This document shows, one piece after another, positions 2,205 to 18,157 of a DNA stretch of 27,122 nt. Position numbers and translations under genes: made by a program. The stretch comes from a virus: positions 1 through 27,122 of IMG/VR virus record IMGVR_UViG_3300029858_000001. One strand, written 5' to 3'. Below the pieces are notes generated by a model. It saw nothing but the letters and a program-made list of their open reading frames with translations, did no database searches and was not told where the DNA came from. Each line of letters starts with the position of its first letter. The first letter of the stretch is position 1.

Positions 2205-2421
2205 ACTGGTTGAAAAAACTGATTGGAATAAATACCGGAAAAAAGATATTCTTGATTTGGTCAAAGAGCATCCTGAACTTCTGGATATGACACCTGTTCA
2301 GCTTCGTACTAGAGCCAGAGATTTGGATTGGGATGCTGATGGATACATGAATAAAGTTAATAGCCTTGAAAATGAAGCGTCTTTGACCAGAGATTTAATT
2401 GAAATTATGTATGGAGAGTGA
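2179..2421 (+). CDS. hypothetical protein (about 80 aa; the ORF also opens at 2008 but that start overlaps 1956-2204)
   Basis: Internal ATG at 2179 is preceded by GAGGGGATTTTTGAAG. The frame is shared with track ORF 2008-2421. Confidence 0.4.
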   Translation: MMNIAELIKLVEKTDWNKYRKKDILDLVKEHPELLDMTPVQLRTRARDLDWDADGYMNKVNSLENEASLTRDLIEIMYGE

Positions 2422-3233
2422 TAATTATGAATTACCATTCAGATAAATGGGTTATGGATAAAGTAGAAACTCATTTAGAAGCAGCTAATGTTAGAAGCGA
2501 AAATTGGGTTAGTTTAATGGCTTATGGTAGCCAGAATTATGGTCTTGATACTCAATCGTCTGATGTAGATACCCGGCTTATTGTTCTTCCTTCATTTGAA
2601 GATATTGTATTAAATAAGAAGCCGGTATCTTATACCAAGATTCTTCCTAATGATGAACACATTGATTTTAAAGATATTCGTTTGTTCATTGATTGTTTAA
2701 AGAAACAGAATATGGCTTATCTTGAATGTATTTTCACTCCTTATAAAATGGCATCAAGCGAATATTGGAATGAATGGCAGGAGCTGCTCAATGAGCGTGA
2801 AGCTATTGCCCGTTATAATCCTTATAAGGCAGTTAAAACTATGAAGGGTATTGCTATGGAAAAATACCATGCAATGGAACATAGATATCCTATCAAGGTT
2901 CCCCTAATTGATACATATGGTTATGATAGTAAGCAGCTTATGCATTTGTTCCGTATTGAACAGTATCTTGGACGTTATATTGATGGGGTTAAGTATGCTG
3001 ATTGTCTTCCAGCACCAAGGGGTGATTATCTTCTTGCTGTAAAAAATTATCACTATGATCTTGAAGCTGCACGAATTGTAGCTAAAACTGCTATTGACAA
3101 TATTACAAGAGTAGCTGATAATTATTGTGCCAAAACTAAAGATGAAGGTAATAAAGAACTTGAAGATTTTATGAATAATGTCGTTTATAAAATCATGAAG
3201 AAAAGAGTAGTAAAGGAAATGTTAAATGTCTAA
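2418..3233 (+). CDS. Pol-beta superfamily nucleotidyltransferase (MNT-like)
   Basis: Motif GSQNYGLDTQSSDVDTRLIV matches the minimal nucleotidyltransferase signature G-S-x9-13-D-x-D. Confidence 0.6.
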   Translation: MIIMNYHSDKWVMDKVETHLEAANVRSENWVSLMAYGSQNYGLDTQSSDVDTRLIVLPSFEDIVLNKKPVSYTKILPNDEHIDFKDIRLFIDCLKKQNMAYLECIFTPYKMASSEYWNEWQELLNEREAIARYNPYKAVKTMKGIAMEKYHAMEHRYPIKVPLIDTYGYDSKQLMHLFRIEQYLGRYIDGVKYADCLPAPRGDYLLAVKNYHYDLEAARIVAKTAIDNITRVADNYCAKTKDEGNKELEDFMNNVVYKIMKKRVVKEMLNV

Positions 3234-3417
3234 CGAAAATATGACTATTGAAATTGATATTCGAGATATTGAAGAAATTGAAAAGAATATCGAAATTTTA
3301 GCTGAATGGATGACAAATCATTATACACGATTTGGTGCTCAAGCAATTGCACTTACAGCCATTTTTGATAAAGTAGAGGAATTAAAGAAAGAGCTGGCTG
3401 AAGAAGAAAATACATAA
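3226..3417 (+). CDS. small acidic protein (63 aa)
   Basis: ORF overlapping the previous stop. It is Glu-rich. Confidence 0.4.
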   Translation: MSNENMTIEIDIRDIEEIEKNIEILAEWMTNHYTRFGAQAIALTAIFDKVEELKKELAEEENT

Positions 3418-3430
3418 GGAGGAACCTTCA

Positions 3431-4210
3431 ATGTTCAAGGACTATTTGATTAGAGGCGACTGTCATGGTGATTTTACATGGCTTAATGCAAAAATGTTTA
3501 GAATTTTAAATCCAAAAGACTATGCAATCATCATTCTTGGAGATGTTGGTTTTAATACTGGTAGTACATTCCGAGATAATATGAAGAAAGAATACGCAAG
3601 CCAGTTTGGATATTTTATTTATTGTGTGCGGGGCAATCATGAAGTACGTCCTGAGAACATTGAAGGCATGGAGCGTGTTTGGGATAGTAATGTTCAAGCT
3701 AATGTATGGTATGAGCCAGCTTATCCTCTAATTAGATATTTTGATAATTACGGGATTTATTATCTTAAAACTGAAGATAGAGAATATCGTACATTAGTTA
3801 TTGGTGGTGCTTATTCTGTTGATAAATATTATCGTCTTAAAAACAATCTGCTTTGGTGGGAAGATGAACAATTAAGCGATAAAGAAAAGGCTGATGCTGA
3901 AATGCTTATTCGACAAACTAATAAGCATTTTGATCTTGTACTATCACACACATGCCCTTATTCTCTTAGGCCAGTTGATAAATTCCTTTCAGTAGTAGAT
4001 CAATCTACTGTAGATACCTCTATGGAAGAATGGCTTGAAGAAATTAAGAATATGATTACATATGATGTATGGCTTAGTGGTCATTATCATTGCGATAAAT
4101 TTATTAATAAGCATAATATTATCTTTTTTAATTGTATCGACCCTTTGGAAGATATTTTCCTTTGGCATGATAAAATGGATGATACTGTAAATAATATTGA
4201 CCGCTTTTAA
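3431..4210 (+). CDS. calcineurin-like metallophosphoesterase (Ser/Thr phosphatase-like)
   Basis: Motifs GDCHGD, ILGDVGFNTG and VRGNHE match the GDxHG / GDxxDRG / GNHE phosphoesterase signature. The RBS is AGGAGGAACC. Confidence 0.75.
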   Translation: MFKDYLIRGDCHGDFTWLNAKMFRILNPKDYAIIILGDVGFNTGSTFRDNMKKEYASQFGYFIYCVRGNHEVRPENIEGMERVWDSNVQANVWYEPAYPLIRYFDNYGIYYLKTEDREYRTLVIGGAYSVDKYYRLKNNLLWWEDEQLSDKEKADAEMLIRQTNKHFDLVLSHTCPYSLRPVDKFLSVVDQSTVDTSMEEWLEEIKNMITYDVWLSGHYHCDKFINKHNIIFFNCIDPLEDIFLWHDKMDDTVNNIDRF

Positions 4211-5470: not shown

Positions 5471-5521
5471 TAATAAAATATTATAAAATATTTATAGAAA
5501 AAATAAAGGGAGTAAATAATC

Positions 5522-7165
5522 ATGACACCTTATGAAGCATTGACTGCACAAGATAAGGAATATATTACTGAATATATTGAAACATGGGGTGGCATTAATT
5601 CCCCAATTAAGCTTAAAGCACCTCTTAATTATATTCTTGGAGAATGGAATAAGAGTAAGCAAACTTTGTTTAATATCTTTGGCGAAAAGTTAATGCTGGA
5701 GAAGGAAATTCAAGTTGAAGATGGAGATAACAAAAAAATAAGAGAAGTTAGTGAGTATCTCTATAGCTTTAACCCTGGTATTAATTTTATTAAGAATCTT
5801 CGTAAGTTATTTGAGCTTAACGATACTTATTTTGAAAATACTTATGCAACAAAACATGCAATATATAATTTAATTCAAGCTTATCAACTTTTTACTAATA
5901 GAGTTGCTAAAGGATTTACTTATCATAATAAAGATGGTAAAATAGTTAAAGTTCCAGAAGGAGCTAAGGTAATGAAAGTTCTTCAGAAAATGGCTAAAGA
6001 ATTTGATTTGCCTGATTTTGAAATTTTTCGTAATCATATTTCGCGTATCACTGAAGTACGCAAATCTAAAATTAAATTTACTCTATCTATTCATCCTCTG
6101 GATTATATGACTATGAGTGATAATGTGAATGGGTGGGAAAGTTGTATGAACTGGACTCAAGGACCAGGTAGTTATCGTTCTGGTACTATTGAGATGATGA
6201 ATAGTCCATTAGTTGTTGTAGCTTATATTACTACTAAACCTTATTATCCAACAAATACTTCTATTGAATGGACTTCCAAAAGCTGGAGAGAATTGATTAT
6301 TGTTCATCCGAATACTATTTGTTCTGTAAAATCTTATCCTTATTACAATATTGCCTTTGATAAAGCTCTTGTTAATTGGCTTGCTAATCTGGTTGAAGAA
6401 AAAACTGAATGGCGTTATAACAGAAAACAGCCACAAGAGAGTTTGGAAAGTTGTTCTTATATTGAAGCTTGGCAAGATAAAGAAGATGAAGATAATCATT
6501 TCCTGTTGGATTTTGAAACAAATGAAATGTATAATGATTTTGGTAACACAGAAAATTATGGGATTTTTTCAATTAATCCACCAGACAATAAATATCGTAC
6601 ATTCGCAATTAATTATTCTGGTTTGATGACTTGTATGTGCTGTGGCGAGGATGGTTATTGGTCTGATGATACTGAAGCAGTAGTTTGTGAAGACTGTGAT
6701 CCACCCACTTATTGTTATTGCTGTGGCGAACGAGTTAATGCAAATGATGCAATTGAAGTAGATGGTGAATGGGTTTGCGAAGATTGTTATAATGATTTGC
6801 ATAGATGCTTATGCTGTGAGGATGCTCATTTTGATGAAGATTTCACTACTGTATTTGTTGGACATATTGATAATCAAACTATTAATATTGATTATGATGA
6901 GCATTATATTTGTAATGAATGTCTTGCCAATAAAGAATATTTAAAGTATCTCAGAGATACTAATATTAGGGCTGAAACAATTCGATTGGATGGCGGTCCT
7001 TATTATGGTATAGTGGCTCTCTTAATTGAAGAAGATGATTTAAATGTAGAGGCTAAAAAGATAATTTCTAATGATCCTTATTCTACTATAATTACTGATT
7101 ATACTTATGCTATTCGTCGTTATCCTGAGCGTTTTTATAGTTACAATAGGTCAATTGCGATTTAA
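5522..7165 (+). CDS. large protein: N-terminal 'HPLDY...W-SC' domain plus C-terminal multi-CxxC zinc-ribbon array (paralog of 9761-11083)
   Basis: SIHPLDYMTMSDNVNGWESCMNW resembles SVHPLDYLSLSENTHNWRSCHAL in 9761. Repeated CxxC pairs occur in the last 180 aa. Confidence 0.7.
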   Translation: MTPYEALTAQDKEYITEYIETWGGINSPIKLKAPLNYILGEWNKSKQTLFNIFGEKLMLEKEIQVEDGDNKKIREVSEYLYSFNPGINFIKNLRKLFELNDTYFENTYATKHAIYNLIQAYQLFTNRVAKGFTYHNKDGKIVKVPEGAKVMKVLQKMAKEFDLPDFEIFRNHISRITEVRKSKIKFTLSIHPLDYMTMSDNVNGWESCMNWTQGPGSYRSGTIEMMNSPLVVVAYITTKPYYPTNTSIEWTSKSWRELIIVHPNTICSVKSYPYYNIAFDKALVNWLANLVEEKTEWRYNRKQPQESLESCSYIEAWQDKEDEDNHFLLDFETNEMYNDFGNTENYGIFSINPPDNKYRTFAINYSGLMTCMCCGEDGYWSDDTEAVVCEDCDPPTYCYCCGERVNANDAIEVDGEWVCEDCYNDLHRCLCCEDAHFDEDFTTVFVGHIDNQTINIDYDEHYICNECLANKEYLKYLRDTNIRAETIRLDGGPYYGIVALLIEEDDLNVEAKKIISNDPYSTIITDYTYAIRRYPERFYSYNRSIAI

Positions 7166-7236
7166 TTGAAATTTTTAAAATAAAATAATATAATATATAC
7201 ATAAAATAAAGAAAAAATAAAAGGAGTTATTAAATT

Positions 7237-7632
7237 ATGGAAAAGAAATTTACGAAGCGTGAGCTGTATGATGCTCTGATTGGCAAGCTGTGCGGTGAAG
7301 AGGTTGAGGTTGATGCACAGACTCTGGTTGATTTTTGTCAGGCAGAGATTGACCGTATCGACCAGCGTAATGCCAAGGATCGCGAGAAGCGTGAAGCCAA
7401 GAAGGCTGAGCCTGATGTTGCGCGCGAGAAGGTATTTGCGGCACTTGACGAGCAATTCCGTACTGCTAATGTAATTCATGATTCTATTGGTGATGAAGAT
7501 ATTACTCTGGGTAAGGTTCGTCATCGTCTTGCAGGTCTTGTTCGTGATGGTCTGGTGAAGAAGCAGGAGATGAAGATTCCTGGTGGTGAAGGTGAGAAAG
7601 CACGTCACGCTATGTGCTACGCAAAGGTTTAA
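7237..7632 (+). CDS. hypothetical protein in a GC-rich (about 48%) compositionally foreign island
   Basis: Codon usage and GC differ sharply from the flanks (GAGCTG, GCGCGCGAG). The RBS is AAAAGGAG. A strong terminator follows. Confidence 0.6.
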   Translation: MEKKFTKRELYDALIGKLCGEEVEVDAQTLVDFCQAEIDRIDQRNAKDREKREAKKAEPDVAREKVFAALDEQFRTANVIHDSIGDEDITLGKVRHRLAGLVRDGLVKKQEMKIPGGEGEKARHAMCYAKV

Positions 7633-7639
7633 TACATGA

Positions 7640-7668
7640 AGGGTCGGGAAACCGGCCCTTTTGTTTTG
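7640..7668 (+). terminator. rho-independent terminator (GGGTCGG-GAAA-CCGGCCC plus T-tract)
   Basis: GC-rich hairpin with a GAAA tetraloop, followed by TTTTGTTTT. Confidence 0.7.
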
Positions 7669-7799
7669 CCATTTTAGGGTGCTGCTCCAGCCAAGGTCAG
7701 GCGTCTATACCGAACGTCCAAATTAAAAAGCGGTTTAAGAATTTTTTTGACTAAATGTTAATAATATGATAAAATAATATAAAAAAGGAGTAGATAAAA

Positions 7800-8627
7800 A
7801 TGAAAGTTTGTTTAAGACATAACCAAGAAGAACAATATCTCCAAAAGGCAGAATAGGTTGAGGTTAAATGGGCATATATTGACCAACTTCTTGATTTAGT
7901 AGAAAAATATCCTGATAAAGATTTTATCATAGATGCTCCAAAAGGCAAGCCAATGGATTGGAAAAGTATAGCCACTTGTAAGGCCGGCCTGCATTAGGGC
8001 CATACCTTCTATATTCGGCTGCATGATCTAAATCCTTTGCTTACATTACGCTGGATGGAGAAATATGATCTTAAATTTTTTTATAGTGAACCGGCAAAAA
8101 CCTATTATGAGCTGTATAATTTAAAAAAATTAGGTGTATCATATGCTTATATTGATGCTCCTATTTTCTTTGATTTAAATGAAGTAAAAAAAATAGATAT
8201 TCCATTAAGACTTGTACCAAATCGCGCATATATTCAAGGGCATATTCCACAAATGAGTGGCTTACATGGCACTTGGGTTCGTCCAGAAAAACTTGATATT
8301 TATGAACCATATTTTGATGTTTGTGAATTTGAAAATGATGGACCTACACAAGAACGAGCTTTCTACCGCATTTATTTTGAAGATAAGTCTTGGCCAAATG
8401 ACATGAATTCATTAATTTTTGGACTTAATACTAATATTGATGATAGATTAGTATATGAAGGTCTTGATGAAATGCGTCTTAATTGTAAACAAGTATGTGA
8501 AACGCCTAAGCCCTATTGCCAAATGTGTGATAAAGTATTGTACTTTGAACGTGCAGGACGCCAATGGGCTAAGGAGTATATTGCCGAACATGAGGGAGAA
8601 GACCAAGAACAGATAAGCCCTAATTGA
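7800..8627 (+). CDS. hypothetical protein (275 aa) with two in-frame TAG sense codons (7854, 7995)
   Basis: ATG 7800 has the RBS AAAAGGAG. Its frame is continuous with track ORF 8037-8627. The only interruptions are TAG. It ends at TGA. Confidence 0.6.
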
Positions 8628-8681
8628 TTATTTAATAAAATTATTATATAATATTTATATAATAATAGAAGGGAATAAGAA

Positions 8682-9680
8682 ATGGGTAAAAAAGTTTTAG
8701 TTCCTGAATTTACTGAAAATTGTAGGGGGCTTTTGGAAGGACTATTCAAGATTAGTGAAGTAGGTCTTTTGAAAGCTCTCGGTGATTTTGTATCTAATAA
8801 ATATTCTAATGTAGAAATTACAGAAGATTATGTATATGCTGAAGGCAATATTCCTGTTATGCTTATTGCACATGTAGATACTGTATTTAGACAACCAATT
8901 CGTCAATTTACTTATAATGAGAAAAGAGCTGTTTATAAAGGCAAGGAAGGTCTTGGAGCAGACGATAGAGCAGGTGTTTTTGCGATTATTCAGATTTTGC
9001 GTAAAAAGTATAGACCTTATGTTCTTTTTACAACAGATGAAGAAATGGGTGGCTACGGGGCACATATATTTGTTGAAGCACATCCAACAGCTCCAAATAT
9101 TAAGTATATGATTGAACTTGATAGAGCTGGTGAAAGAGATTGCGTCTTCTATGAGTGTGAGAATTTTACATTCATGGATTATGTTGAAAGTTTTGGTTTT
9201 AAGCAAGCGATTGGGTCATTTACAGATATTAGTATTATTATGCCTGAATGGGAAGTCGCTGGAGTAAATTTATCAGTTGGTTATCATCATGAACATACTC
9301 AGAATGAAGATTTACATATTAGAACATTGTATAATACAATTAGTAAAGTATGTAAAATGCTTGATGATATTGAAAATGCAGATAAATATAAGTTTATCCC
9401 CAGCAAGGAATATCTCCAATGGATTACATTGACTAATAAATATCATATGCCTTATGATTTTGATGATGATAAACTTCTTAATTGTAGTTTTTGTAATCAG
9501 TTGTATTATGAGTGGGAAGATTTTCCTCTTGATATTGATGGAGTAAAAGTTCATGTGTGCCCTGAATGTTTAGCACTTGATCCTAATATTCATCAATGTG
9601 AAAAGTGTTATAATTTATTTTATTCAAATAATATGAAGGAAAGAGTATGTGATAAATGTCGAGTCCCTGTTGTAATTTAA
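8682..9680 (+). CDS. M42/M20-like metallopeptidase-fold protein with a C-terminal CxxC zinc-ribbon array
   Basis: Motifs HVDTV, GADDRAG and TTDEEMGG match the HxD / GxDD(R/K)xG / EE motifs of M42/M20 peptidases. The C-terminus has CSFC, CPEC, CEKC and CDKC. Confidence 0.55.
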   Translation: MGKKVLVPEFTENCRGLLEGLFKISEVGLLKALGDFVSNKYSNVEITEDYVYAEGNIPVMLIAHVDTVFRQPIRQFTYNEKRAVYKGKEGLGADDRAGVFAIIQILRKKYRPYVLFTTDEEMGGYGAHIFVEAHPTAPNIKYMIELDRAGERDCVFYECENFTFMDYVESFGFKQAIGSFTDISIIMPEWEVAGVNLSVGYHHEHTQNEDLHIRTLYNTISKVCKMLDDIENADKYKFIPSKEYLQWITLTNKYHMPYDFDDDKLLNCSFCNQLYYEWEDFPLDIDGVKVHVCPECLALDPNIHQCEKCYNLFYSNNMKERVCDKCRVPVVI

Positions 9681-9760
9681 ATGAAATTAAAGAACAAGTA
9701 AAGAAGGTTATTGCCTATTCATAGGGGCTGGATATTAACCTTTTAAATATTGATAAATTA

Positions 9761-11083
9761 ATGAATGATTGGGAAGAGAATAAATGCAAATTTTATAGTA
9801 GGCTTCCTGGTAATAAATTAATTTATCAAAGCCATACGCCTATTACAATGTCTATTTCAGAAGATGATAAAAAAGCTGAATTAGATTGTTTTATTGACAA
9901 TATTCGTTGGCATTATGGTTTATTTGAATTAAAAGATTTTGTTGAAAATAATAGAAAAGATTTTTATAATAATATTTTAAGCGAAGATTATTCAATGAAT
10001 AATGGGACTGTCATTCCAAAAGGAATGAAAATAATTAAAGCATTTAAATATTTTGTAGAAGATAAGGAAATTCTTACTGAAATACAAGATAAAGCTAGTA
10101 TGCTTATTCAAAATACAAAAATTAGTGGATATTTTTGTATGTCAGTTCATCCATTGGATTATCTTAGTTTAAGTGAAAATACACATAATTGGCGGTCATG
10201 CCATGCTCTTGATGGAGAGTATCGTGCTGGTAATTTATCTTATATGGCAGATAATTGTACAATTATATGTTATATTAAGAGTGAACATGACGCGGTTTTA
10301 CCTAGATTCCCAGAGGATATACCATGGGCAGATAAGAAATGGCGTATGCTTCTTCATGTATCTGATGATAATACTATGGTTATTTCAGGTCGGCATTATC
10401 CTTATGAAAGTAAAGGATTACAAGATTTCGCTCTTGAATTATATGAAACATTTTTCGGGCTAGGATACCGTTTTACTGATTGGTGTCATGAAAAATATAA
10501 TACATTTACAATAAATGATAAAATTTTTTCTAATGAGAGTCGTTTATTACCTACTGGATACGTAATGACCCCAGATATTAAGGTTATTGTTGATCCGAAA
10601 AATCCTTTGCACTATAATGATCCTCTCCATTCTACTGTGTATGACTATTGGTTTAGTATTGCTTATAGTGAACCTTATTGGCATGAAGAAGGTATTCCAC
10701 AAGATAAATTAATTCTTCCAAGAACTCGTACTACTACTAAAGTTAACATAGGACATGGGGTAAAATGCTGTATTTGCGGCAAAAATGATTGTGTTTTAAC
10801 AGATACAATGCTTTGTATTGATTGTGAGCTTGAATATGGTACAGAAGAAACAGAAGATTTTACTTTCTGTAGAGAGTGTGGTAGACGTATTTATATTCCT
10901 GAAGCAATATCATTAGATGATGATGATGGTTATGTATGCCGTAGCTGCGGAGATAATTATTAGATATGTGATAATTGTAATATGTATTATGATAAAAAAG
11001 ATTTAATTTATGATGAAGAAAACAATGCTTATTATTGTGAAGCTTGTTTTGATGAAATTTTATTTGATAGGGAGAATGAATAA
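9761..11083 (+). CDS. paralog of 5522-7165 (HPLDY domain plus zinc-ribbon array), read through TAG at 10961
   Basis: After TAG the frame continues in clearly coding, CxxC-containing sequence to TAA 11081. This overlaps the next start (TAATG). Confidence 0.65.
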
Positions 11084-11391
11084 TGGCAAAAGGTAGTATT
11101 GCTAAAGATGCTGTCGTAGAAAAAATTGCAGAAGCATTTGGTGAAGATTTCCTTGGATCTTATGATAAAAAGTATTATGTGCGAGCTAAAGAAAATGGAC
11201 AATATATTCAGATTGCAATTAGTTTAACTTGTCCGAAGACTCCTGTGGAAAATTTTGGTTCTATGGATTTTGGTAATAATGAACTTAATTTTGAAGATGG
11301 AGCAACAATTCAGCCTGCGAAGAAGGCTACAGAAATTAGTCCAGAGGAAGAAGAAAATTTAAGAGCTTTAATTGAGAAATTAGGATTATAA
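11083..11391 (+). CDS. small acidic hypothetical protein
   Basis: 102-aa ORF. Confidence 0.5.
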   Translation: MAKGSIAKDAVVEKIAEAFGEDFLGSYDKKYYVRAKENGQYIQIAISLTCPKTPVENFGSMDFGNNELNFEDGATIQPAKKATEISPEEEENLRALIEKLGL

Positions 11392-11393
11392 TT

Positions 11394-12005
11394 ATGATTT
11401 TAAGAATAATTTATAATGAAAATGAATCTTATGATTATGATTTAGGAGAATACCATACAGATAAATTTAAACTTTTGACAAGTGTTTATCCAGCTTGTGA
11501 AATTAATATATTATATTTCCATGATATTAATGATACAGAAAATTCTAAATTTGATAAAATTGCAAAAGAAATTCAATCAAAACCTTTTTTATTAATTAAA
11601 GAAGTTCAAATTTTAAATAAAAATACTGTTGTTTTTAAACAAAATAGAATGATAAAAAATATTGTTTATAGAGATATTTTTTATTCTGCTGGTCATAATT
11701 TAATTAAAGAAGAAGCTTTAACATTTAAATTCCAAGAAAATTGTAAAGCTATCATTGATAGAGAAAAAGAACAAATTTTTTGTGATAAAGAAAATTGTAT
11801 GTATTTTAAACAAGGACATTGTTTTAATTATAATACAGACCTTTATCAAAGTGGAGAAGAATTTGTTCCTTGTTATCCTTGTTTTCTTGAATGTGATACT
11901 GGATTTAAATTTTCTGAAATTTATTCATTTTATACAAAGTTACAAAATAAGGCAGAAGATGAGGGACATTTACCTTATCAACCTTATACAATAAGAGATA
12001 ATTGA
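11394..12005 (+). CDS. hypothetical protein (203 aa), Cys-containing
   Basis: ORF immediately after the previous stop. Confidence 0.5.
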   Translation: MILRIIYNENESYDYDLGEYHTDKFKLLTSVYPACEINILYFHDINDTENSKFDKIAKEIQSKPFLLIKEVQILNKNTVVFKQNRMIKNIVYRDIFYSAGHNLIKEEALTFKFQENCKAIIDREKEQIFCDKENCMYFKQGHCFNYNTDLYQSGEEFVPCYPCFLECDTGFKFSEIYSFYTKLQNKAEDEGHLPYQPYTIRDN

Positions 12006-12259: not shown

Positions 12260-12377
12260 AAGGCTTTTACAGCAATTTAAACTTTTTTCCGTGGTCGAAT
12301 AACTGGATAATTCATCAGAGTTAATTCTGAAAATAAGGATTCGAATTCCTTCCTTGGAGCAAAGCGTAAAAAGTCTT
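12260..12377 (+). tRNA. tRNA-like gene (core 12288-12359) with a 6-nt anticodon loop GTTAAT, flanked by the inverted repeat AAGGCTTTT / AAAAGTCTT. It shares the leader ACAGCAA with the 12061 unit.
   Basis: D-arm GAAT-AACTGGATA-ATTC, T-arm AAGGA-TTCGAAT-TCCTT, and an acceptor with one mismatch and one wobble. No CCA. The anticodon is not assignable. Confidence 0.35.
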
Positions 12378-12453
12378 GGGTAAATTTCTTAATTTGAAAA
12401 AATTAAAAAAATATAATATAATATATAAGTAATCAATAAGAAATCAAATAAAT

Positions 12454-12602
12454 GCTCTCGTAGCTCAATTGGTCAGAGCCGGCGACTTATCCAAGATTAG
12501 TTTAAATGGTAAAATAGTCTATGCGCAAGAAAGATGTGAGTTCAAGCCTAACATCTTGGGCCAAATCGCCAGATGTGGGTTCAAATCCCGACGGGAGCAC
12601 CA
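12454..12602 (+). tRNA. tRNA (Ile-like, anticodon loop CTTAT|AA, UAU) interrupted by a 73-nt tRNA-like insertion (12491-12563) after anticodon position 36
   Basis: Outer acceptor GCTCTCG / CGGGAGC-A-CCA. D-arm GCTC-AATTGGTCA-GAGC. Anticodon-stem GGCGA / TCGCC is split by the insert. The insert has termini CCAAGAT / ATCTTGG, a T-arm GTGAG-TTCAAGC-CTAAC, and its own G-CCA. Confidence 0.5.
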
Positions 12603-12628
12603 TATTCCAATAGAAAGGAATTAAAATA

Positions 12629-12868
12629 ATGAAGTTGACGAATATTAAACAGGTTGAAGATTTTATTGCAGCGGTTAATCGCGCTCATAGTAATGTATGG
12701 CTGGTAAGTCCGCAGGGTGACAGATACAATATGAAATCTGCACTTTCACAATATATCGCGCTTGGCGCATTACTTGGTCAGCATGGTGATGAACTGGAAC
12801 TTTTCTGTGATAGTAAGCAAGATGAAGGCTTATTTATTGAATTTTTCATAAAATATCCTGAAGTATAA
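12629..12868 (+). CDS. hypothetical protein (79 aa)
   Basis: RBS GAAAGGAATTAAAATAATG. It lies between tRNA genes and the nuclease gene. Confidence 0.5.
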   Translation: MKLTNIKQVEDFIAAVNRAHSNVWLVSPQGDRYNMKSALSQYIALGALLGQHGDELELFCDSKQDEGLFIEFFIKYPEV

Positions 12869-12871
12869 ATT

Positions 12872-13795
12872 ATGCCTAAACTTATTGATATTCCGATAGA
12901 AACTAAATTTAATAGATGGACTGTTCTTAAAAGAGATACTACTAAGAAACGAGGATACTGGTTTTGTTAGTGCGATTGTGGTAATCCTGAAATTAGAAGT
13001 ATAAATATTACTACATTAAAAAGTGGACGTTCAAAATCTTGTGGTAAATGTGGATAGTATGATGAAATTGGTAAGACTTATGGACGTTTAAAAGTTCTTG
13101 AAGTTGATTTAGATTATAAAGAGTAGTATAAGACTAAAGTTTCAGGTTATTATTATAAATGTTAGTGCTCTTGTGAAAATAAAACAATTATTACCGTAAG
13201 TGGCATTAATTTAAGAAATGGACATACAAAATCTTGCGGATGCTTAATTAAAGAAGGGTGTAATAAAAAAGATCTAACAGGTCAAGTTTTTGGGTTTTTA
13301 AAAGTTTTATATCCGACTGAATAGAGGGTATCTTCTTATATCATTTGGCATTGTCGTTGTTTAAATTGTAATAATGAATGTGATGTTTCATCCAGAAATT
13401 TAATTGAAGGAAGAACTAGCTCTTGTGGATGTTTGCGTTCAGTTGGAGAAGCAAATATAAAAAAAATATTGCAAAATAATTAGATAGATTTTTCTTAGGA
13501 AAAAAATTTTTCAGATTTAATTAATCCAGATACTACATATTTATTACGTTATGATTTTTATTTACCTCAATTTAATAGGCTTATAGAATTTGATGGAGAG
13601 TAGCATTTTAAATATAAAAAAAATAATTCTACTTGGAACAATGAAGAAAATTATTTAAAAACAGTGCATAATGATAAAATAAAAAATGATTATGCTAAAT
13701 AGCACAATATTCCATTAGTTCGTATTCCTTACTGGGAACGTGATAATATTACTCTTGATATGTTATTAGGAGATTAGTATTTAATTAACAAATAA
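12872..13795 (+). CDS. free-standing homing-endonuclease-like protein: three tandem Cys4 zinc-finger repeats (W-C-x-C-x-C-G-N ... S-C-G-C) plus a C-terminal Vsr/PD-(D/E)XK-like nuclease domain (YRYDFYLPQFNRLIEFDGEQHF). Contains 10 in-frame TAG sense codons.
   Basis: Hand translation gives a single frame from ATG 12872 to TAA 13793. The only interruptions are TAG. The repeats WFC(TAG)CDCGNPE, YKC(TAG)CSCENK and WHCRCLNCNNE are each followed by SCG(K)C. Confidence 0.65.
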
Positions 13796-13900
13796 TTTAT
13801 TGAATTTTTTGTCCATCATCCTGAAGTTTAATTGAAAAATTAAAAAAAATATTATAAAATATATATACAAAATAAATGAGAAATAAATTCTCATTTGTAT

Positions 13901-13977
13901 GGGACAGTAGCTTACGAGGTCGGAGCATTGGTCTGAAAAACCAAAGGATGGAGGTTCGATACCTCTCTGTCCCACCA
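13901..13977 (+). tRNA. tRNA-Phe (GAA)
   Basis: Acceptor GGGACAG / CTGTCCC. Anticodon loop CTGAAAA. T-arm GGAGG-TTCGATA-CCTCT. The discriminator is A and CCA is encoded. Confidence 0.85.
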
Positions 13978-13978
13978 A

Positions 13979-14058
13979 TTGGTCTTATACATGGGGTTTT
14001 CGATTTGAACTAGGCAGATTAGTCACCTGCCGTTGGCAATAGACCAATTAAAAATAAA
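13979..14058. ncRNA. short structured element / degenerate tRNA-like hairpin enclosed by TTGGTCT / AGACCAA
   Basis: 7-bp terminal helix. It has an internal GGCAG-ATTAGTCAC-CTGCC stem-loop that reads GTGACTAAT on the minus strand. No canonical cloverleaf forms on either strand. Confidence 0.25.
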
Positions 14059-14195
14059 CTGAGGCAAAGGGAAATCGGGTAGCTATGATGAATTTCATAG
14101 TAAAATCCTCTCATAATCAAGCTAATTGGGAGAGGGGTAGCACGGGAACGGGGAGAAGCGTGCTATAAAAGGTGAAATACTTCTTTCCACCATAT

Positions 14196-14271
14196 GCCGG
14201 TGTAGCCGAATGGCATAGGCGAATGATTTAGGATCATTAATCTGAAGGTTCGAGTCCTTTCACCGGTACCA
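14196..14271 (+). tRNA. tRNA with anticodon UAG (decodes CUN Leu codons) but a type-I (short variable arm) body
   Basis: Acceptor GCCGGTG / CACCGGT-A-CCA. Anticodon-stem AATGA / TCATT. Loop TTTAGGA. T-arm GAAGG-TTCGAGT-CCTTT. Confidence 0.65.
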
Positions 14272-14355
14272 ACAGTGAAGTAGTAGCTATACTCACTATA
14301 ATCAAGGCTCGGTGGTTGGTGGCTCCATCGTTATGTAAATAAGTCATATATATAT

Positions 14356-14426
14356 TACTTCTTGGTGTAATGGAAGCATGCTGCCTGAAAGAGGCGGAGG
14401 TATTGGTTCAATTCCAATAGAAGGAT
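14356..14426 (+). tRNA. tRNA-like element lacking a canonical anticodon loop (loop TGAAAGA or GAAAG pentaloop)
   Basis: Acceptor TACTTCT / AGAAGGA with one mismatch. T-arm ATTGG-TTCAATT-CCAAT is perfect. Anticodon-stem CTGCC / GGCGG. No CCA. Confidence 0.35.
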
Positions 14427-14795
14427 TAATTAAAGCTGGGAAATAATAGTCGCCCATAACTAATTATTTAATATAGGACTATTATTAAAGGTTATTTAAG
14501 TTAAAGAAATGCGGTTGAAGTTATTACTAACTTGATTATAAAATAACATGACCGCAAGACGAGTGTTTGAAGCTTGTCTATAAACAAATTCTTCATATGT
14601 TGTCTTTTTATACTTACTCTTTGGTTGTTTCTTGACATATAAGTAAAAACGGAAAGGGAGTTAAAGGTTCAGCTAAAAAACCGGTTTGTTTTTTGATAAG
14701 GTTTTAAAAATTATTAGGTGACAAAATCTTATTTGAGTGACGCTGCTCAGGAGGGTCCGGAACCTCTGAAATGCGTATAATAAAGGAGATAAAAT

Positions 14796-14972
14796 ATGAA
14801 ATTTCAATTAAGGTATTTTCATTGTCCTATTTGTCATTTACAAATGACGGCTCCTAAAACCAAGAATTTCAAAAAATCTTCTTATAAAGGGAAAAAACAT
14901 CGAAAAATAATGTATTGCATTAATTGTAAAAAAGAACAAAATTTTATTTTAGATGAAATTTCTATTGTATAA
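14796..14972 (+). CDS. small zinc-ribbon protein (58 aa; CPIC...CINC)
   Basis: ATG with RBS AAAGGAG. It is not in the ORF track because it is under 60 aa. Hand-translated MKFQLRYFHCPICHLQM...CINCKKEQNFILDEISIV. Confidence 0.45.
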   Translation: MKFQLRYFHCPICHLQMTAPKTKNFKKSSYKGKKHRKIMYCINCKKEQNFILDEISIV

Positions 14973-15011
14973 ATGATGGTGTGGCCTAGCGGTAAGGCAC
15001 CTGCCTTTGAT

Positions 15012-15745
15012 TTAGTAGCATAAGTAATGCAATTTCGAACTGGGTCAAAGAAGGTTAAGAGAATTAATTTAGGAATTAAATAACAGTGAAAGGAGCTGTT
15101 ATTTATGGCTAAAACTAATTCAGAAAATGTATGTAATTTTGTTAGAAATAGAAAAGCTAATTTAATTTCTTTATTTCATAGTAAATGTTGTATTTGTGGT
15201 TTCGATAAATTTCAAGAAGCTTTAGAATTTCATCATATAAATCCTAAAGAAAAAGAAATTTCTCTATCAGCTAATACAATGGTGTCATTAGAACGTCAAA
15301 TCAATGAGGCTAAAAAATGTATTTTAGTTTGTTCTAATTGCCATAAGGGAATACATGCTGGATATTATCAAATTCCTTCTAATTATTAGGATTTATTTGA
15401 TAATGAATAGGCAGAATATTTATTATAGATGAATAAAGAAATTAAAGAAGGTAAAAAACATTATTGCAAACAATGTGGTAAATTATTAAATTCTAATACA
15501 ACTTATTGTTTAGATTGTAGTCATATTATTTAGCGTAAAACAGAAAGACCAGATAGAGAAACTTTAAAGTAGTTAATTCGTAATTAGTCTTTCGTAGCAA
15601 TAGGTAAATAGTATGGAGTAAGTGATAATGCTATTCGCAAATGGTGTGTTTCTATGAATTTACCTACTAAAAAAACAGAAATTAACCTTTATAATGACGT
15701 CTAGTGGGAATAGATATAAGTTCAAATCTTGTTTAAATCACCATA
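15012..15745 (+). mobile_element. intervening sequence (intron-like) inside the tRNA-Gln anticodon loop, carrying a homing endonuclease gene
   Basis: It lies between the exon halves above. It contains ORF 15105-15719. A hairpin AACAG-TGAAAGGAGC-CTGTT presents the SD. Confidence 0.6.
15105..15719 (+). CDS. HNH homing endonuclease (N-terminal HNH: CCICGF...HHINPKE...CSNCH; C-terminal HTH: LIRN(Q)SFVAIGK(Q)YGVSDNAIRKWC) with 7 in-frame TAG sense codons
   Basis: The standard-code ORF is 15105-15389. With TAG read as sense the frame continues to TAA 15717. The frame was verified codon by codon. Confidence 0.7.
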
Positions 15746-15784
15746 AGCAGGGTACCGAGGGTTCAAATCCCTCCACCATCACCA

Positions 15785-16315
15785 GGTCAAGTTTGAGAAA
15801 TTTCATAAAGCATCGCTGACGTTAAATGGCACTTATATGAAAACGCGTAAGTAATATAAGATAGCAAAATTCTCGTAGTTCATCCTATTAGAGAATCTTA
15901 AAGAGTAATGGCAAGATCATATCGCGGGAGACCGTGCGTATGAGATACCAATAAAGGTAGCACATCTTGTGTTGAGCAAGATAAAAGATGGAAAGGATAC
16001 CTGCCATGCTTGGACGGTAAAAGAAGGCGTTGAATGTAATCGAAAAACATTCCGTTGGTTCTTAGGGGAGCGACGTAACAGTGAAACCCGAGGTTTGAGT
16101 CACCTTGTCCAAACGCTATGTATAGTCAAAGTCTAGGCAACAAGGTTTTAATTAGAGTTAATATTGTTTTAATTAAACTCATACTTGTGGAAATCAAGCA
16201 GGTCCACCTTACTGGGCCTACTGTAAAAGCCAGTTTGATATAGCCTCCATACCCAATGAGGATTTTTATAAAAGTCTATTTAATTTTTCGGGCGGTTTAA
16301 TTAGATAGATTAAAT
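15785..16315. ncRNA. about 530-nt non-coding, comparatively GC-richer, hairpin-rich region between tRNA-Gln and tRNA-Val. Candidate structured RNA of unknown class.
   Basis: No ORF in any frame even allowing TAG. TAA/TGA are dense in all frames. Many local helices are present (GTGGA...TCCAC, CCTC...GAGG). It contains a TATAGTC motif reminiscent of group I P7 but no matching GACTA partner. Confidence 0.3.
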
Positions 16316-16392
16316 GCCGAGATAGTGCAACTGGTTAACACGTCGCTTTTACACAGCGAAGAGTCTGAGTTCAAGTCTCAGTCTCGGCACCA
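16316..16392 (+). tRNA. tRNA-Val (UAC)
   Basis: Acceptor GCCGAGA / TCTCGGC-A-CCA. Anticodon-stem TCGCT / AGCGA. Loop TTTACAC. T-arm CTGAG-TTCAAGT-CTCAG. Confidence 0.85.
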
Positions 16393-16457
16393 ACAAATTT
16401 GAAAATTTAAAAAAAATATTATATAATATATATATAATAATAAAGGAGATATTTGAA

Positions 16458-16622
16458 ATGGCAACTACTAAGAAACCTGCAATTAAAATGGATAATACAG
16501 AGTTGAACGAGTATCTTCTGTTTCGCCGTCGTAGATCTATTGTTCCTGCTAAGAAAGGCAAGGGCATGGAATATGATAGAGCAAAGGAAAAAGAAAAGTC
16601 AAGAGATTTGGCTTCTGATTAA
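16458..16622 (+). CDS. small basic protein (54 aa)
   Basis: RBS AAAGGAG. Hand-translated MATTKKPAIKMDNTELNEYLLFRRRRSIVPAKKGKGMEYDRAKEKEKSRDLASD. It is embedded in the tRNA operon. Confidence 0.45.
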   Translation: MATTKKPAIKMDNTELNEYLLFRRRRSIVPAKKGKGMEYDRAKEKEKSRDLASD

Positions 16623-16726
16623 CTTAGGCGGCAAGAACATTTCTGTTCCTTGTAAATATAGCACATACTAATAACTTAGGAGTTGTGCCCTACAGCCAGT
16701 GAGTAGTTTTCAGGCTGGCATTATAT

Positions 16727-16801
16727 GGCCCCATCGACAAGTGGTCAAGTCCCAGGGTTTTCATCCCTGTATCGTCGGTTCGAATCCGGCTGGGGTCACC
16801 A
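16727..16801 (+). tRNA. tRNA-Glu (UUC)
   Basis: Acceptor GGCCCCA / TGGGGTC-A-CCA. Anticodon-stem CAGGG / CCCTG. Loop TTTTCAT. T-arm GTCGG-TTCGAAT-CCGGC. Confidence 0.85.
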
Positions 16802-16899
16802 TTAAGTGTGATATATTCCAAACACGTAGGGTGGTAAGCACACGGGTTTTCTAGAAGCCTTCCCTATGAATATGGGAGACTAGCCTAGTGGTTCAGGCA

Positions 16900-17373
16900 G
16901 CGGACTGTTTCTTCTGACTTACAATGTTGTAGAATTATGTTAAATTCAAAACAAATTGGTAATATCACAGAAATGGAATCAATGCTTGCTTTTTTAAAGT
17001 TAGGTTATAATGTTCTTACTCCTTATGGAGATTGTGAGCGTTATGACTTCGTAGCTGATGTGAATGGAAATTTTTATAAAATTCAATGTAAAACTTCTCA
17101 TGCTTTTGGTGAGAATGAAGGTATTGAATTTAGTTGCAGAAGTTCTCATCGAGCCGAAGGAAAATGTATTAACGAACGATATACAGCAGATGATGTAGAT
17201 TTTTTTGCTACAACATTTAATGGGAAATGTTATTTAGTTCCTTTTAATGAATGTGGTGGCAGTAAAAAATTAAGATTTGTTAATCCAAAAAATGGACAAA
17301 TTCAACGAGTATCATTTGCTGAAAATTATGAATTAGAGAAGGTGTTAATGACATTGTAACTGATGTAAGAAGC
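16900..17373 (+). mobile_element. intervening sequence in the tRNA-Asn anticodon loop carrying a PD-(D/E)XK homing endonuclease gene
   Basis: Bounded by the exon halves above. ORF 16937-17359 occupies nearly all of it. Confidence 0.55.
16937..17359 (+). CDS. PD-(D/E)XK homing endonuclease, I-Ssp6803I-like (known from a cyanobacterial tRNA-fMet intron)
   Basis: Motif ERYDFVADVNGNFYKIQCK fits D...(D/E)xK. The size is 140 aa. It lies inside a tRNA anticodon loop. It has no TAG codons. Confidence 0.55.
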   Translation: MLNSKQIGNITEMESMLAFLKLGYNVLTPYGDCERYDFVADVNGNFYKIQCKTSHAFGENEGIEFSCRSSHRAEGKCINERYTADDVDFFATTFNGKCYLVPFNECGGSKKLRFVNPKNGQIQRVSFAENYELEKVLMTL

Positions 17374-17519
17374 AATCCGCCAAGCAAGGTTCAATTCCTT
17401 GGTTTCCCGCCACCGCACTCGCGGAAAACATACAACTCAACTGGTGCATAGAACTGGATGGAGCGTTCTATTAGTCTGATGCCTGCATTAGATTAAGTTT
17501 TATAACCATCATACTTGGG

Positions 17520-17590
17520 GACATAGTTTATGGTAGGAAAACGTTGAATTTAATTCAAAGTCGAGGGTTCGAATCCCACTCCCGCAACCA
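17520..17590 (+). tRNA. tRNA-like 3' element (GAGGG-TTCGAAT-CCCAC ... TCCCGCA-A-CCA) with an unresolved 5' partner. Possibly another split or degenerate tRNA.
   Basis: Canonical T-loop and a CCA end. No complementary acceptor 5' strand was found within 150 nt. Confidence 0.25.
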
Positions 17591-17713
17591 TATGAAAAGC
17601 CCATACAGCAACTTTTAATAGGATAAATAAGAAATTCTGCAAAAATTTTTTAGAGTTGGTTCAAATCCAGCAAATGATTTTAGGGCTTTGTTAAAATTAT
17701 TAAGGAGAAAATA

Positions 17714-17899
17714 ATGAAGTTTAATCCAGGAGATAAGGTCTGGTGTAAGAGGTACGGTAAGGGTAAGTGCCGCAAGGCTGATAATAAGGATAATTTTATG
17801 ACTTATCTTTTCAGATTTTATGATGGCACTTTAATTTGGATGCCAAAACATCAGGCTGAACATTTTGTAAAAGTTCGTTCCACCGAGGCCACGGTGTGA
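17714..17899 (+). CDS. small hypothetical protein (61 aa)
   Basis: RBS AAGGAG. ORF in the track. Confidence 0.5.
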   Translation: MKFNPGDKVWCKRYGKGKCRKADNKDNFMTYLFRFYDGTLIWMPKHQAEHFVKVRSTEATV

Positions 17900-18059
17900 A
17901 TATAAAGTCCGGTTATAGGAAATCCTGTCATTAGGCGGCAGGCTACCGGTAATCCTTTCTTATATATTTAAATATGTAAGGAACAAAAACTATACAATAG
18001 ATAGAGTTTTTACGCCTTGGCGCAATGCTTGTTTTTTTACTATCTATTTTTTTATACTT

Positions 18060-18151
18060 GTTGGGTTGGCTGAGAGGTCGATAGCGGCTGCCTGCTAAGC
18101 AGTTGTCCCTGGAAACGGGGACCAAAGGTTCAAATCCTTTACCCAACGCCA
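18060..18151 (+). tRNA. tRNA-Ser (GCU), type II
   Basis: Acceptor GTTGGGT / ACCCAAC-G-CCA. Loop CTGCTAA. Long variable arm TGTCCCTGGAAACGGGGACC. T-arm AAAGG-TTCAAAT-CCTTT. Confidence 0.85.
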
Positions 18152-18157
18152 TTATAT

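Follow-up and report, generated by a model that had tools for sequence, protein, structure and literature searches.

We describe a tRNA gene with a second tRNA-shaped unit set into its anticodon loop, at positions 12454-12602 of the virus record IMGVR_UViG_3300029858_000001 from IMG/VR (27,122 nucleotides (nt), analysed over its whole length and called the window below). The outer gene is a tRNA-Ile(UAU) and the insert, which we term a tRNA-mimic intron, belongs to a class of ten insert families that share one design. We consider it probable that these inserts are introns acting at the RNA level, cut out at the ends of the tRNA mimic, and that the two tRNA halves are rejoined by a ligase. We infer the excision and each of the enzymatic steps named below from the anatomy of the inserts and from comparison among genomes. 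The window is AT-rich phage DNA, in which a plus-strand tRNA array with encoded CCA ends lies between a region in the standard genetic code and a region recoded at TAG.

An interrupted tRNA-Ile(UAU) gene

The gene at 12454-12602, with its 73-nt insert, was found by ARAGORN in intron mode and missed by a run without intron search, and the Rfam tRNA model spans 12454-12599 with 42.7 bits. The 5' exon (12454-12490, plus strand) supplies the acceptor strand GCTCTCG, the D arm, the anticodon stem strand GGCGA and loop nucleotides 32-36, CTTAT, in the layout GCTCTCG-TA-GCTC-AATTGGTCA-GAGC-C-GGCGA-CTTAT. The 3' exon (12564-12602, plus strand) provides A37 and A38, the stem strand TCGCC, the variable loop, the T arm, the acceptor strand CGGGAGC, A73 and the encoded CCA (AA-TCGCC-AGAT-GTGGG-TTCAAAT-CCCGA-CGGGAGC-A-CCA). 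The insert (12491-12563, plus strand), recognised with Rfam, ARAGORN and covariation and bounded by comparison with an uninterrupted homologue, lies between nucleotides 36 and 37 of the outer tRNA (CTTAT/AA). Its excision yields GGCGA-CTTATAA-TCGCC, and the gene spliced in silico forms a canonical cloverleaf that ARAGORN scores 117.2 as tRNA-Ile(tat). The uninterrupted homologue, IMG/VR locus L004 (3855-3930), was retrieved with a 20-mer of the 5' exon. Because it shares the anticodon arm exactly and reads CTTATAA in the loop, the outer gene is tRNA-Ile(UAU) and not the tRNA-Trp(CCA) with an intron after nucleotide 34 that ARAGORN proposed, a reading that also scores lower (109.7) than the rule-based splice. 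The insert boundaries cannot slide, since the flanking bases at the two junctions differ. An empty allele with the exact outer body of this gene was not found. An earlier interpretation made from the letters alone, referred to here as the sequence-only reading, had already proposed an Ile-like outer tRNA and a 73-nt tRNA-shaped insert with its own CCA after nucleotide 36, and both proposals are borne out. It had also predicted the clean loop CTTATAA upon removal of 12491-12565; the loop is right for 12491-12563, and the longer stretch is 2 nt in excess and would delete A37 and A38 (12564-12565).

The insert reads CCAAGAT-TA-GTTT-AAATGGTA-AAAT-A-GTCT-ATGCGCA-AGAA-AGAT-GTGAG-TTCAAGC-CTAAC-ATCTTGG-G-CCA. 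Its ends form the perfect 7-bp acceptor helix described in the sequence-only reading (CCAAGAT at 12491-12497 with ATCTTGG at 12553-12559), and the D arm, T arm, discriminator and CCA noted there are likewise present: the D arm occupies 12500-12515 with the stem GTTT/AAAT, the T arm occupies 12536-12552 (GTGAG-TTCAAGC-CTAAC) with one internal G.A mismatch that leaves 4 of 5 pairs, and the 3' end consists of the discriminator G at 12560 and the CCA at 12561-12563. The same reading had denied the insert a foldable anticodon arm, and here it was mistaken, as a short arm exists at 12517-12531, with a stem of three base pairs plus G.A and the 7-nt loop AUGCGCA. This arm does not match that of a decoding tRNA, being 15 instead of 17 nt long and one pair short, with C at position 37, and the inner 73-nt unit is not a decoding tRNA. 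Taken alone (12491-12560), the insert passes the Rfam tRNA model with 32.6 bits against a gathering score of 29; ARAGORN calls it solely at a lowered threshold (97.6).

Recurrence and covariation of the nested gene

The search of other genomes that the sequence-only reading had suggested located the identically nested gene in 16 further loci on 15 distinct contigs of independent assemblies, always at CTTAT/AA. Six of these loci are in IMG/VR (five contigs of 105-201 kb), eight are ENA human-gut contigs, and the remaining two are L178 and L005; the sources include IMG/VR 3300045988, ENA ERZ assemblies, OJAW01000005, ORSB01002749 and one metagenome-assembled genome (MAG). The L005 copy resides in an array of 24 tRNAs with neighbours unlike those in the window, and the L178 copy is on a contig of 4.4 kb that had been grouped into a Clostridium MAG but is probably a phage fragment assigned to the wrong bin. 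A sequencing error or misassembly at the locus had been named beforehand as what could undo the observation, and two tRNA genes might also have been joined into a chimera. Repetitive tRNA arrays can indeed mis-assemble, but because the nested gene recurs in 16 loci with sequence variants, from different projects and with compensatory pairs among the allelic differences, we consider the probability of an artefact negligible. Further searches widened the sample little: INPHARED phage genomes contain no close relative of the window, a synteny search using the neighbouring 203-amino-acid protein gave no match, an exact-protein look-up for more flanking DNA matched solely an 897-bp contig, and 200 further loci around ligase genes yielded no new nested tRNA, with only the L178 copy found again.

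Seven distinct alleles of the nested gene were distinguished. The outer body occurs in two types, A (GCTCTCG..., anticodon stem GGCGA/TCGCC) and B (GGGGTCG..., anticodon stem GGCAA/TTGCC), both of them interrupted, and their anticodon stems differ by a compensatory change from G:C to A:U. The inner acceptor helix occurs in four forms, CCAAGAT/ATCTTGG, CCAAAAT/ATTTTGG, CTAAGAC/GTCTTAG and the G.U intermediate CCAAGAT/ATTTTGG, with double changes at pairs 2-71, 5-68 and 7-66. Across the seven alleles, three of the seven inner acceptor pairs and one outer anticodon-stem pair thus covary, at an overall pairing of 95.8%; this covariation was reached in none of 500 shuffles, and controls with a slid register dropped to 30-55% pairing. 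As the alleles are close kin (97% mean column identity), the covariation provides good but not overwhelming evidence that selection acts on the RNA structure of the insert. The outer tRNA likewise appears to be preserved.

The stems of the insert vary among the 17 copies, but its central 18 nt, TATGCGCAAGAAAGATGT, are the same in every one, which hints at a function of the inner RNA. This would fit a reading in which RNase P and 3' processing free the halves and no rejoining follows, so that the gene makes the 73-nt RNA and/or tRNA halves, for instance as decoys for host anticodon nucleases and other tRNA-directed defences, or as regulators. The tRNA cluster of phage T4 also yields small stable tRNA-like RNAs of no known role, and a ligase was not seen in the DNA searched from the subclade of the window. 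However, the invariance is weak evidence because the alleles are so closely related, and release without rejoining would leave unexplained why a complete outer cloverleaf with a correct UAU loop is conserved and why the inserts are found in the anticodon loops of tRNAs that read AT-rich codons. We regard this reading as very unlikely.

Ten families of tRNA-mimic inserts

We surveyed 70 loci of about 20 kb around homologues of RlaP, an RNA-repair nucleotidyltransferase described below, in a large clade of phages of approximately 100-200 kb, using ARAGORN combined with a boundary test. Including the one in the window, ten insert families were identified. Two have tRNA-Ile(UAU) as host, with the 73-nt insert of the window at 36/37 and a 75-nt insert at 34/35. 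Six interrupt tRNA-Lys(UUU), either at 34/35 (56 and 68 nt) or at 35/36 (58, 75, 86 and 735 nt); one is found in tRNA-Thr(UGU) at 34/35 (87 nt) and one in tRNA-Glu(UUC) at 36/37 (863 nt). In all ten families the insert begins at acceptor nucleotide 1, ends with N73-CCA, forms seven of seven acceptor pairs and is without a target-site duplication, and a T stem of 5 bp (4 of 5 pairs in the 73-nt insert) with a 7-nt T loop abuts the acceptor 3' strand. Each therefore has the design of a substrate of RNase P and RNase Z, in which an acceptor helix of 7 bp stacks on a T stem of 5 bp and the 3' end is N73-CCA, and the common denominator is a 12-bp acceptor/T minihelix with NCCA. Anticodon arms are aberrant or missing in the other nine families. 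By chance the design would be expected about 1e-4 times per insert (8 possible splits, multiplied by 1/64 for CCA and by (6/16)^7 for the helix), and it was seen in none of about 37 spurious intron calls made by ARAGORN; the design is not due to chance. Comparison of filled with empty alleles fixes the boundaries in three cases, namely Ile (L004), Lys (L008) and Glu (empty in the window at 16727-16801, filled in L020), and all ten genes spliced in silico score 116-126 with ARAGORN.

A motif AGAT(R)T just 5' of the T stem is present in six families, and the ends of the 73-nt insert are most similar to those of the 863-nt tRNA-Glu insert (14 of 22 and 23 of 34 positions), which makes common descent of the families plausible. 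Open reading frames (ORFs) for HNH endonucleases are carried by the 735-nt (window and L025) and 863-nt (L020) members, the latter at 36/37 as in the window's tRNA-Ile, and the 73-nt member has no ORF. With HNH ORFs in two long members of like design, and with filled and empty alleles among close relatives, the family shows, as far as sequence can tell, the hallmarks of mobility.

Another view is that no splicing takes place and that a selfish DNA insertion inactivated the tRNA-Ile gene, with any function residing in the inner RNA or nowhere; the insert might then be a homing-endonuclease relic, an element that has inverted ends of 7 bp and resembles a miniature inverted-repeat transposable element (MITE), or a tRNA-like RNA with a CCA end that was copied back into DNA. 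A protein that binds both DNA ends would likewise make a 7-bp inverted repeat covary, in silico removal of any clean insertion restores the loop, so that canonical loops by themselves prove no splicing, and phage tRNA arrays are partly redundant. Yet no target-site duplication was found in the filled-versus-empty comparisons of the Ile, Lys and Glu sites, for which reason a MITE or insertion-sequence transposon was rejected in spite of the inverted ends. The insert moreover exceeds its inverted ends, with D and T arms and a score above the Rfam tRNA threshold. Both of the diverged outer bodies are intact tRNAs, interrupted alleles differ in their anticodon stem by a compensatory change, and the high scores after splicing hold in all ten families. 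The interrupted gene is the sole UAU tRNA in the 24-tRNA array of L005 and the sole Ile-UAU tRNA in all the arrays seen, including that of the window, and the insert persists across phages of differing synteny (L005 and the window). Homing endonuclease genes, furthermore, normally persist in needed genes only on an element that can be spliced. We consider inactivation by a DNA insertion quite unlikely.

A proposed route of excision

In an Rfam search of 12300-18400, neither group I nor group II introns nor small ribozymes were matched at E ≤ 5; models split by large insertions could be missed in such a search, a limit that does not apply to the 73-nt insert. A group I intron was rejected because the insert has 73 nt, its last base is A and not G, and Intron_gpI matches neither at its gathering score nor at E ≤ 5. 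Group II introns and hammerhead, twister, hepatitis delta virus-like and other small ribozymes were rejected on the same Rfam result.

A route through the enzymes of tRNA end processing is proposed because the DNA ends of the element match the mature ends of the mimic to the base. Such coincidence is not required of a mere DNA parasite; it is needed if tRNA end processing is to regenerate the loop. In this route the precursor would fold as a normal cloverleaf with a second, independent tRNA-like domain projecting from the anticodon loop. The host RNase P would take the inner domain for a pre-tRNA and cut at U36/C1' (12490/12491), so that the 5' exon would end in a 3'-OH. A tRNA 3'-endonuclease of the RNase Z/BN type that spares CCA would cut after A76' (12563/12564) and give the 3' exon a 5'-phosphate. 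The acceptor, D, T and anticodon stems of the outer tRNA would keep the exon halves from separating, and an ATP-dependent Rnl-type ligase would seal the nick in the anticodon loop. The ligated junction would read ...GGCGACUUAU/AAUCGCC... (U36-A37), and the products would be a mature 76-nt tRNA-Ile(UAU) and a free 73-nt RNA ending in CCA. At the DNA level the family would spread by homing, with long members encoding the HNH endonuclease, and the 73-nt form would be a derivative that lost the ORF or never had it. For this pathway as a whole, with RNase P, the CCA-sparing 3' endonuclease, the Rnl-type ligase and a mobile ORF-less insert, we put the chance at slightly below even.

Bacterial RNase P and the enzymes of the tRNA 3' end need no more of a substrate than a 12-bp acceptor/T minihelix with NCCA, which would account for CCA always being the last three bases of the inserts, and RNase P RNA pairs with the RCCA end. 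The nucleotide preceding the insert is U, the base that RNase P prefers at -1, in nine of ten families and C in one; as these anticodon loops are pyrimidine-rich, this is weak evidence for RNase P. Both RNase P and RNase Z leave 3'-OH and 5'-phosphate ends, the kind that is joined by Rnl-type ligases. Cleavage that spares CCA has precedents in Thermotoga RNase Z and E. coli RNase BN, and T4 Rnl1 seals nuclease-nicked tRNA-Lys.

RNA repair genes and counter-evidence

Two RNA-repair genes lie on the plus strand of the window (2418..4210), about 9 kb upstream of the tRNA array. One encodes an RlaP nucleotidyltransferase (2418-3233; Pfam PF10127, 7.6e-7, and PHROGs) and the other a calcineurin-like metallophosphoesterase (3431-4210; Pfam PF00149, 1.6e-12, and PHROGs). 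RlaP, a nucleotidyltransferase associated with RNA ligases, works on tRNA 3' ends that have been damaged (bioRxiv 10.64898/2025.12.29.696909). We regard the two proteins as candidate accessory factors of insert removal. A close relative also has a PNK-like kinase gene just upstream, and 54 of 70 related loci encode an Rnl-type RNA ligase no more than a few kb away from RlaP. The ligases are of two types, one matching PF09414 (4e-16) and the other, with a KMHG motif, matching by profile the Naegleria RNA ligase (E=0.009) and T4 Rnl2 (E=0.026). Contig 151351 (L005, L090 and L098), which has the same Ile insert, is among the ligase-encoding loci, with a ligase encoded at L090 12600-13973. In the clade the ligase is accompanied by a PNK-like kinase (AAA_33), metallophosphoesterases, RlaP and a Thg1-like protein.

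Near the ligase/RlaP/PNK cluster and the tRNA arrays, related phages also encode the Thg1-like 3'-5' nucleotidyltransferase (PF04446, 8e-31), an exonuclease of RNase T type and a protein with an HD domain; these were observed among the RlaP loci, including L051 15154-15984, L078 13293-14123 and L045 6089-6862. Together with ligase, RlaP and PNK, the Thg1-like, RNase T-like and HD genes make up an unusually complete tRNA repair toolkit in these phages.

Several points weigh against the pathway through RNase P, a 3' endonuclease and a ligase. Its weakest step is the cut after CCA: many bacterial RNase Z enzymes are inhibited by CCA, and CCA-containing precursors are trimmed exonucleolytically from a downstream cut, a route that would destroy the 3' exon. 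The minimum free energy (MFE) fold of the 149-nt precursor computed with ViennaRNA is not the nested cloverleaf (-41.5 vs -34.9 kcal/mol), so that folding 12454-12602, as the sequence-only reading advised, gave a nested tRNA with ARAGORN and a different structure by energy. No ligase homologue was found in the window or in about 60 kb from its closest relatives, using hidden Markov models (HMMs) of both types on six-frame translations, with about 85% of the roughly 185-kb genome unseen; Pfam and PHROGs detected none on the window's flanking ORFs, and contigs of the window's lineage were not among the matches listed in ligase-family scans of IMG/VR. The repair genes could serve purely to counter host anticodon nucleases. 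RNase P alone would be insufficient for two other kinds of insert: the hairpin inserts that encode PD-(D/E)XK endonucleases in the same arrays, which would need another endonuclease, and the tRNA introns of Lak megaphages, which have about 27 nt of extra 5' sequence and no CCA (Table S6 of Devoto et al. 2019, PMC6784885). Families F4 and F5 have non-canonical T loops (GGCAGGA and GGCAGCA), and a full tRNA elbow is therefore not universal. Finally, the sole hint to a host is the short contig binned with the Clostridium MAG.

Part of this counter-evidence favours an RNA-level intron that is removed by a dedicated endonuclease, of the phage or of the host, which would leave 2',3'-cyclic-phosphate and 5'-OH ends. 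These would be healed and sealed by the PNK-like kinase, the phosphoesterase and the Rnl ligase, in the manner of Trl1 in yeast and plants or of T4 Pnk with Rnl1, and the tRNA shape would be merely a recognition handle or an evolutionary leftover. The clade possesses the full heal-and-seal set (AAA_33/PNK-like kinase, metallophosphoesterases and ligase), and ends made by RNase P and RNase Z would need no healing enzymes. Moreover, neither the PD-(D/E)XK hairpin inserts nor the 5'-extended Lak introns could be released by RNase P alone, and one other nuclease shared by all would be more economical. A dedicated endonuclease leaves unexplained, however, why all ten families start at acceptor nucleotide 1 and end in N73-CCA. 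Pfam and PHROGs scans of a subset of ORFs, with several large ORFs left unannotated, gave no splicing-endonuclease match, and EndA-type enzymes in particular had no Pfam match among the scanned ORFs of the window and its neighbours (not all ORFs were scanned). A bulge-helix-bulge (BHB) intron was rejected upon manual check, as the motif is absent and the two junctions (CUUAU/ and /AA) are in unpaired nucleotides of the outer loop, on either side of a 7-bp helix that is fully intronic. We consider removal by a dedicated endonuclease unlikely.

Three paralogues of 400-550 amino acids are encoded between the RNA-repair genes and the tRNA array (5522-7165, 9761-10963 and 10-579, the last being a C-terminus whose full-length form is found at L028 6453-8117). 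They share the motif S(I/V)HPLDY..S.N...W.SC and Cys-rich C-termini, have no Pfam or PDB match and more than 1900 homologues in gut assemblies, and one matches PHROG 18912, for which no function is assigned. The 547-amino-acid HPLDY paralogue was considered as a hidden ligase and rejected, since it is similar neither to a ligase nor to PDB chains or any named family.

Other interrupted tRNAs and the surroundings of the array

The window contains two further interrupted tRNAs. A tRNA-Lys(UUU) gene (14975-15784, plus strand) has the 735-nt insert (15009-15743) at 35/36, as defined by the empty-site ortholog in L008, whose tRNA body is identical and whose loop reads CTTTTAA; the spliced gene scores 120.6 with ARAGORN as tRNA-Lys. 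This insert follows the design GATTTAG...ATAAG-TTCAAAT-CTTGT-TTAAATC-A-CCA, with the HNH endonuclease ORF (15105-15719; Pfam HNH_2, 1.6e-5) placed between a D-like hairpin and the T arm. Nine in-frame TAG triplets are read as sense in this ORF, whose stop codon overlaps the T stem. In L001, L003 and L019 the syntenic tRNA, whose acceptor and T arm differ from those of the window's tRNA-Lys, has the same anticodon arm and, at the corresponding loop position, a 58-nt insert without an ORF. The ARAGORN assignments Gln(UUG) for the Lys gene and Met(CAU) for its L001 counterpart were rejected on account of the L008 ortholog.

The second gene (16874-17412) is a tRNA-Asn(GUU), as its empty-site orthologs in L001, L005 and L025 read CTGTTAA, and the ARAGORN assignment Asp(GUC) was rejected for the same reason. 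Its 464-nt insert (16910-17373) lies at 36/37 and encodes a PD-(D/E)XK endonuclease (PF11645, 3e-28), the family of I-Ssp6803I. It has long hairpin ends and neither a T arm nor CCA, and is an element of another kind than the tRNA-mimic inserts. About ten similar inserts of 454-483 nt were found in other tRNAs of the clade (L031 188-730, L033 76-622, L038 1977-2534, L074 987-1534, L084 751-1281, L059 871-1418, 2229-2771 and 3704-4242, L022 592-1122, and L008 c936-1492). They consist almost entirely of ORF, enclosed in a long hairpin; the base of this hairpin pairs across the splice sites, and no room is left for a ribozyme. Several share the end motifs CAAAC...GCATTG, and the copy in the window has a CUGA/UGAUG-like internal loop; a manual check of the PD-(D/E)XK insert revealed no BHB motif.

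The sequence-only reading had placed the 73-nt insert at the same relative site as both endonuclease-bearing inserts and had seen in it a possible ORF-less relative of the two. The position agrees for the Asn insert and differs for the HNH insert. Kinship is plausible for the 735-nt HNH element, in view of the like design, its 58-nt ORF-less counterpart and the match of ends with the L020 insert, and does not extend to the 464-nt PD-(D/E)XK element, which differs in its hairpin ends and in lacking T arm and CCA.

About 32 nt upstream of the tRNA-Ile gene there is a promoter-like site, TTGAAA-17-TATAAT (12394-12422, plus strand; 11 of 12 matches), which is weak evidence because the region is AT-rich and such matches equal the shuffle expectation in number. 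A tRNA-like element just 5' of the same gene (12288-12360; L178rc 2214-2285) has a 6-nt anticodon loop and no CCA, and scores 99.0 in the window at a lowered ARAGORN threshold and 108.6 in L178. Farther downstream, at 17517-17584, there is a weak tRNA (Rfam 32.6 bits, ARAGORN 87.9 at a lowered threshold) whose UUA anticodon would decode UAA and perhaps also UAG, an odd choice in a genome that appears to stop at TAA. An 88-nt "tRNA-Trp(CCA)" at 18158-18245 has a long extra arm and obtains 39 bits with the Rfam tRNA-Sec model (gathering score 47) against 33.8 with the tRNA model.

The standard code fits the genes up to about 12 kb, where no in-frame TAG occurs (1-12005), and several later ORFs are sensible only with TAG as a sense codon (12872-13795 with ten in-frame TAGs, 19155-23423 and 25470-27062). 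The pattern, the HNH ORF included, is that of TAG-to-sense recoding confined to late genes. A suppressor tRNA with CUA anticodon was not found in the window; its relative L005 encodes such a tRNA at 9032-9106. The CxxxCxxC motif typical of radical SAM enzymes (CNLNCKYC and CNQHCSYC) occurs in two neighbouring proteins of about 480 amino acids (20160-21638 and 21641-23065), both with recoded TAGs.

Significance and comparison with known systems

In the bacterial world, tRNA introns are taken to be self-splicing group I ribozymes, and the splicing of such introns by proteins is regarded as peculiar to archaea and eukaryotes. If the proposed excision is true, RNase P, a 3'-end nuclease and a repair ligase would constitute a third tRNA-intron route, which would give a concrete answer to the phage tRNA introns called enigmatic in 2019 and a housekeeping, non-defensive role to the Rnl, PNK and RlaP modules that are common in large phages. 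It would also show a homing endonuclease colonising essential RNA genes without a ribozyme. Furthermore, splicing that depends on a ligase could time the decoding of Ile-AUA, Lys-AAA, Glu-GAA and Thr-ACA for the TAG-recoded late genes beside the array. Because standard annotation misses or mislabels such genes (as Trp(CCA) or Gln(UUG)), inferences on tRNA repertoire and codon usage in recoded gut phages are biased. The nested design would in addition be a ready template for co-expression of two RNAs from one tRNA gene. Only tentatively, at somewhat under an even chance, would we set the tRNA-mimic introns apart as a distinct class, defined by absence of catalytic RNA and BHB, excision through RNase P and a 3'-endonuclease, occurrence only in ligase-bearing genomes, HNH homing and possibly the timing of tRNA supply.

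The closest precedent is provided by the Lak megaphages, whose tRNA introns were termed "enigmatic", with no mechanism given (Devoto et al. 2019; PMC6784885; bioRxiv 10.1101/356790); the intron in tRNA-Thr-TGT was itself predicted as a tRNA, and none had an Rfam ribozyme match. Like the insert of the window, these are conserved anticodon-loop inserts in TAG-recoding gut phages, with alleles that have or lack the insert. According to Table S6 they are 79-114 nt long, with a hairpin-containing 5' extension of about 27 nt, are tRNA-like in their 3' part only and end in N-(C)A or CTA and not in CCA, and their host tRNAs have no encoded CCA. All four introns listed there (Tyr, Phe, Thr and Gly) end in an acceptor/T-arm module after the hairpin leader. 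The insert of the window, in contrast, consists of the tRNA-like unit only, from nucleotide 1 through CCA, and belongs to another phage clade (about 100-200 kb) with HNH-bearing long forms. We found no published mechanism or boundary rule for such inserts in the full-text literature (subscription-only papers not covered).

Group I introns in tRNAs (cyanobacterial tRNA-Leu(UAA) and tRNA-fMet, Azoarcus tRNA-Ile, and Patescibacteria, PMC13011429) likewise sit in the anticodon loop at 34-37 and not at the archaeal/eukaryal 37/38, are often mobile via homing endonucleases and occur in coexisting ORF-less and ORF-bearing forms; PF11645, the family of I-Ssp6803I, is represented in the tRNA-Asn insert of the window as well. 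They differ in being self-splicing ribozymes of at least about 200 nt with P1-P9 and a terminal G, whereas the insert is a 73-nt tRNA fold. With the BHB introns and split tRNAs of archaea and eukaryotes the proposed route shares short, non-ribozyme introns, removal by proteins and an RNA ligase that joins the halves. Here, however, the junctions have no 3-4-3 BHB, the site is 36/37, the setting is a bacterial phage, and the proposed recognition element is an intronic tRNA mimic instead of an exon-intron helix.

Processing signals in the form of a tRNA are found in MALAT1 mascRNA, plant precursors of tRNA and small nucleolar RNA, mitochondrial tRNA punctuation and engineered polycistronic arrays of tRNA and guide RNA. 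There too an embedded tRNA-shaped module is freed by tRNA end-processing enzymes and sets the ends of the flanking RNA; those flanks are not known to be rejoined, whereas here they are tRNA halves that would need ligation. That last step resembles the repair of tRNA-Lys nicked in its anticodon loop by T4 Pnk/Rnl1, where a phage ligase seals the break, and the RlaP-associated RNA repair systems (bioRxiv 10.64898/2025.12.29.696909). The window and its relatives carry RlaP, the phosphoesterase and the PNK-like kinase, and the relatives the Rnl ligase, beside the tRNA arrays. The damage is inflicted by host nucleases in those systems, and the break would be a programmed one here, resulting from release of the intron. 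Thus the proposed route would be new with respect to the mechanistically defined intron classes, while the observation of such inserts itself has precedent.

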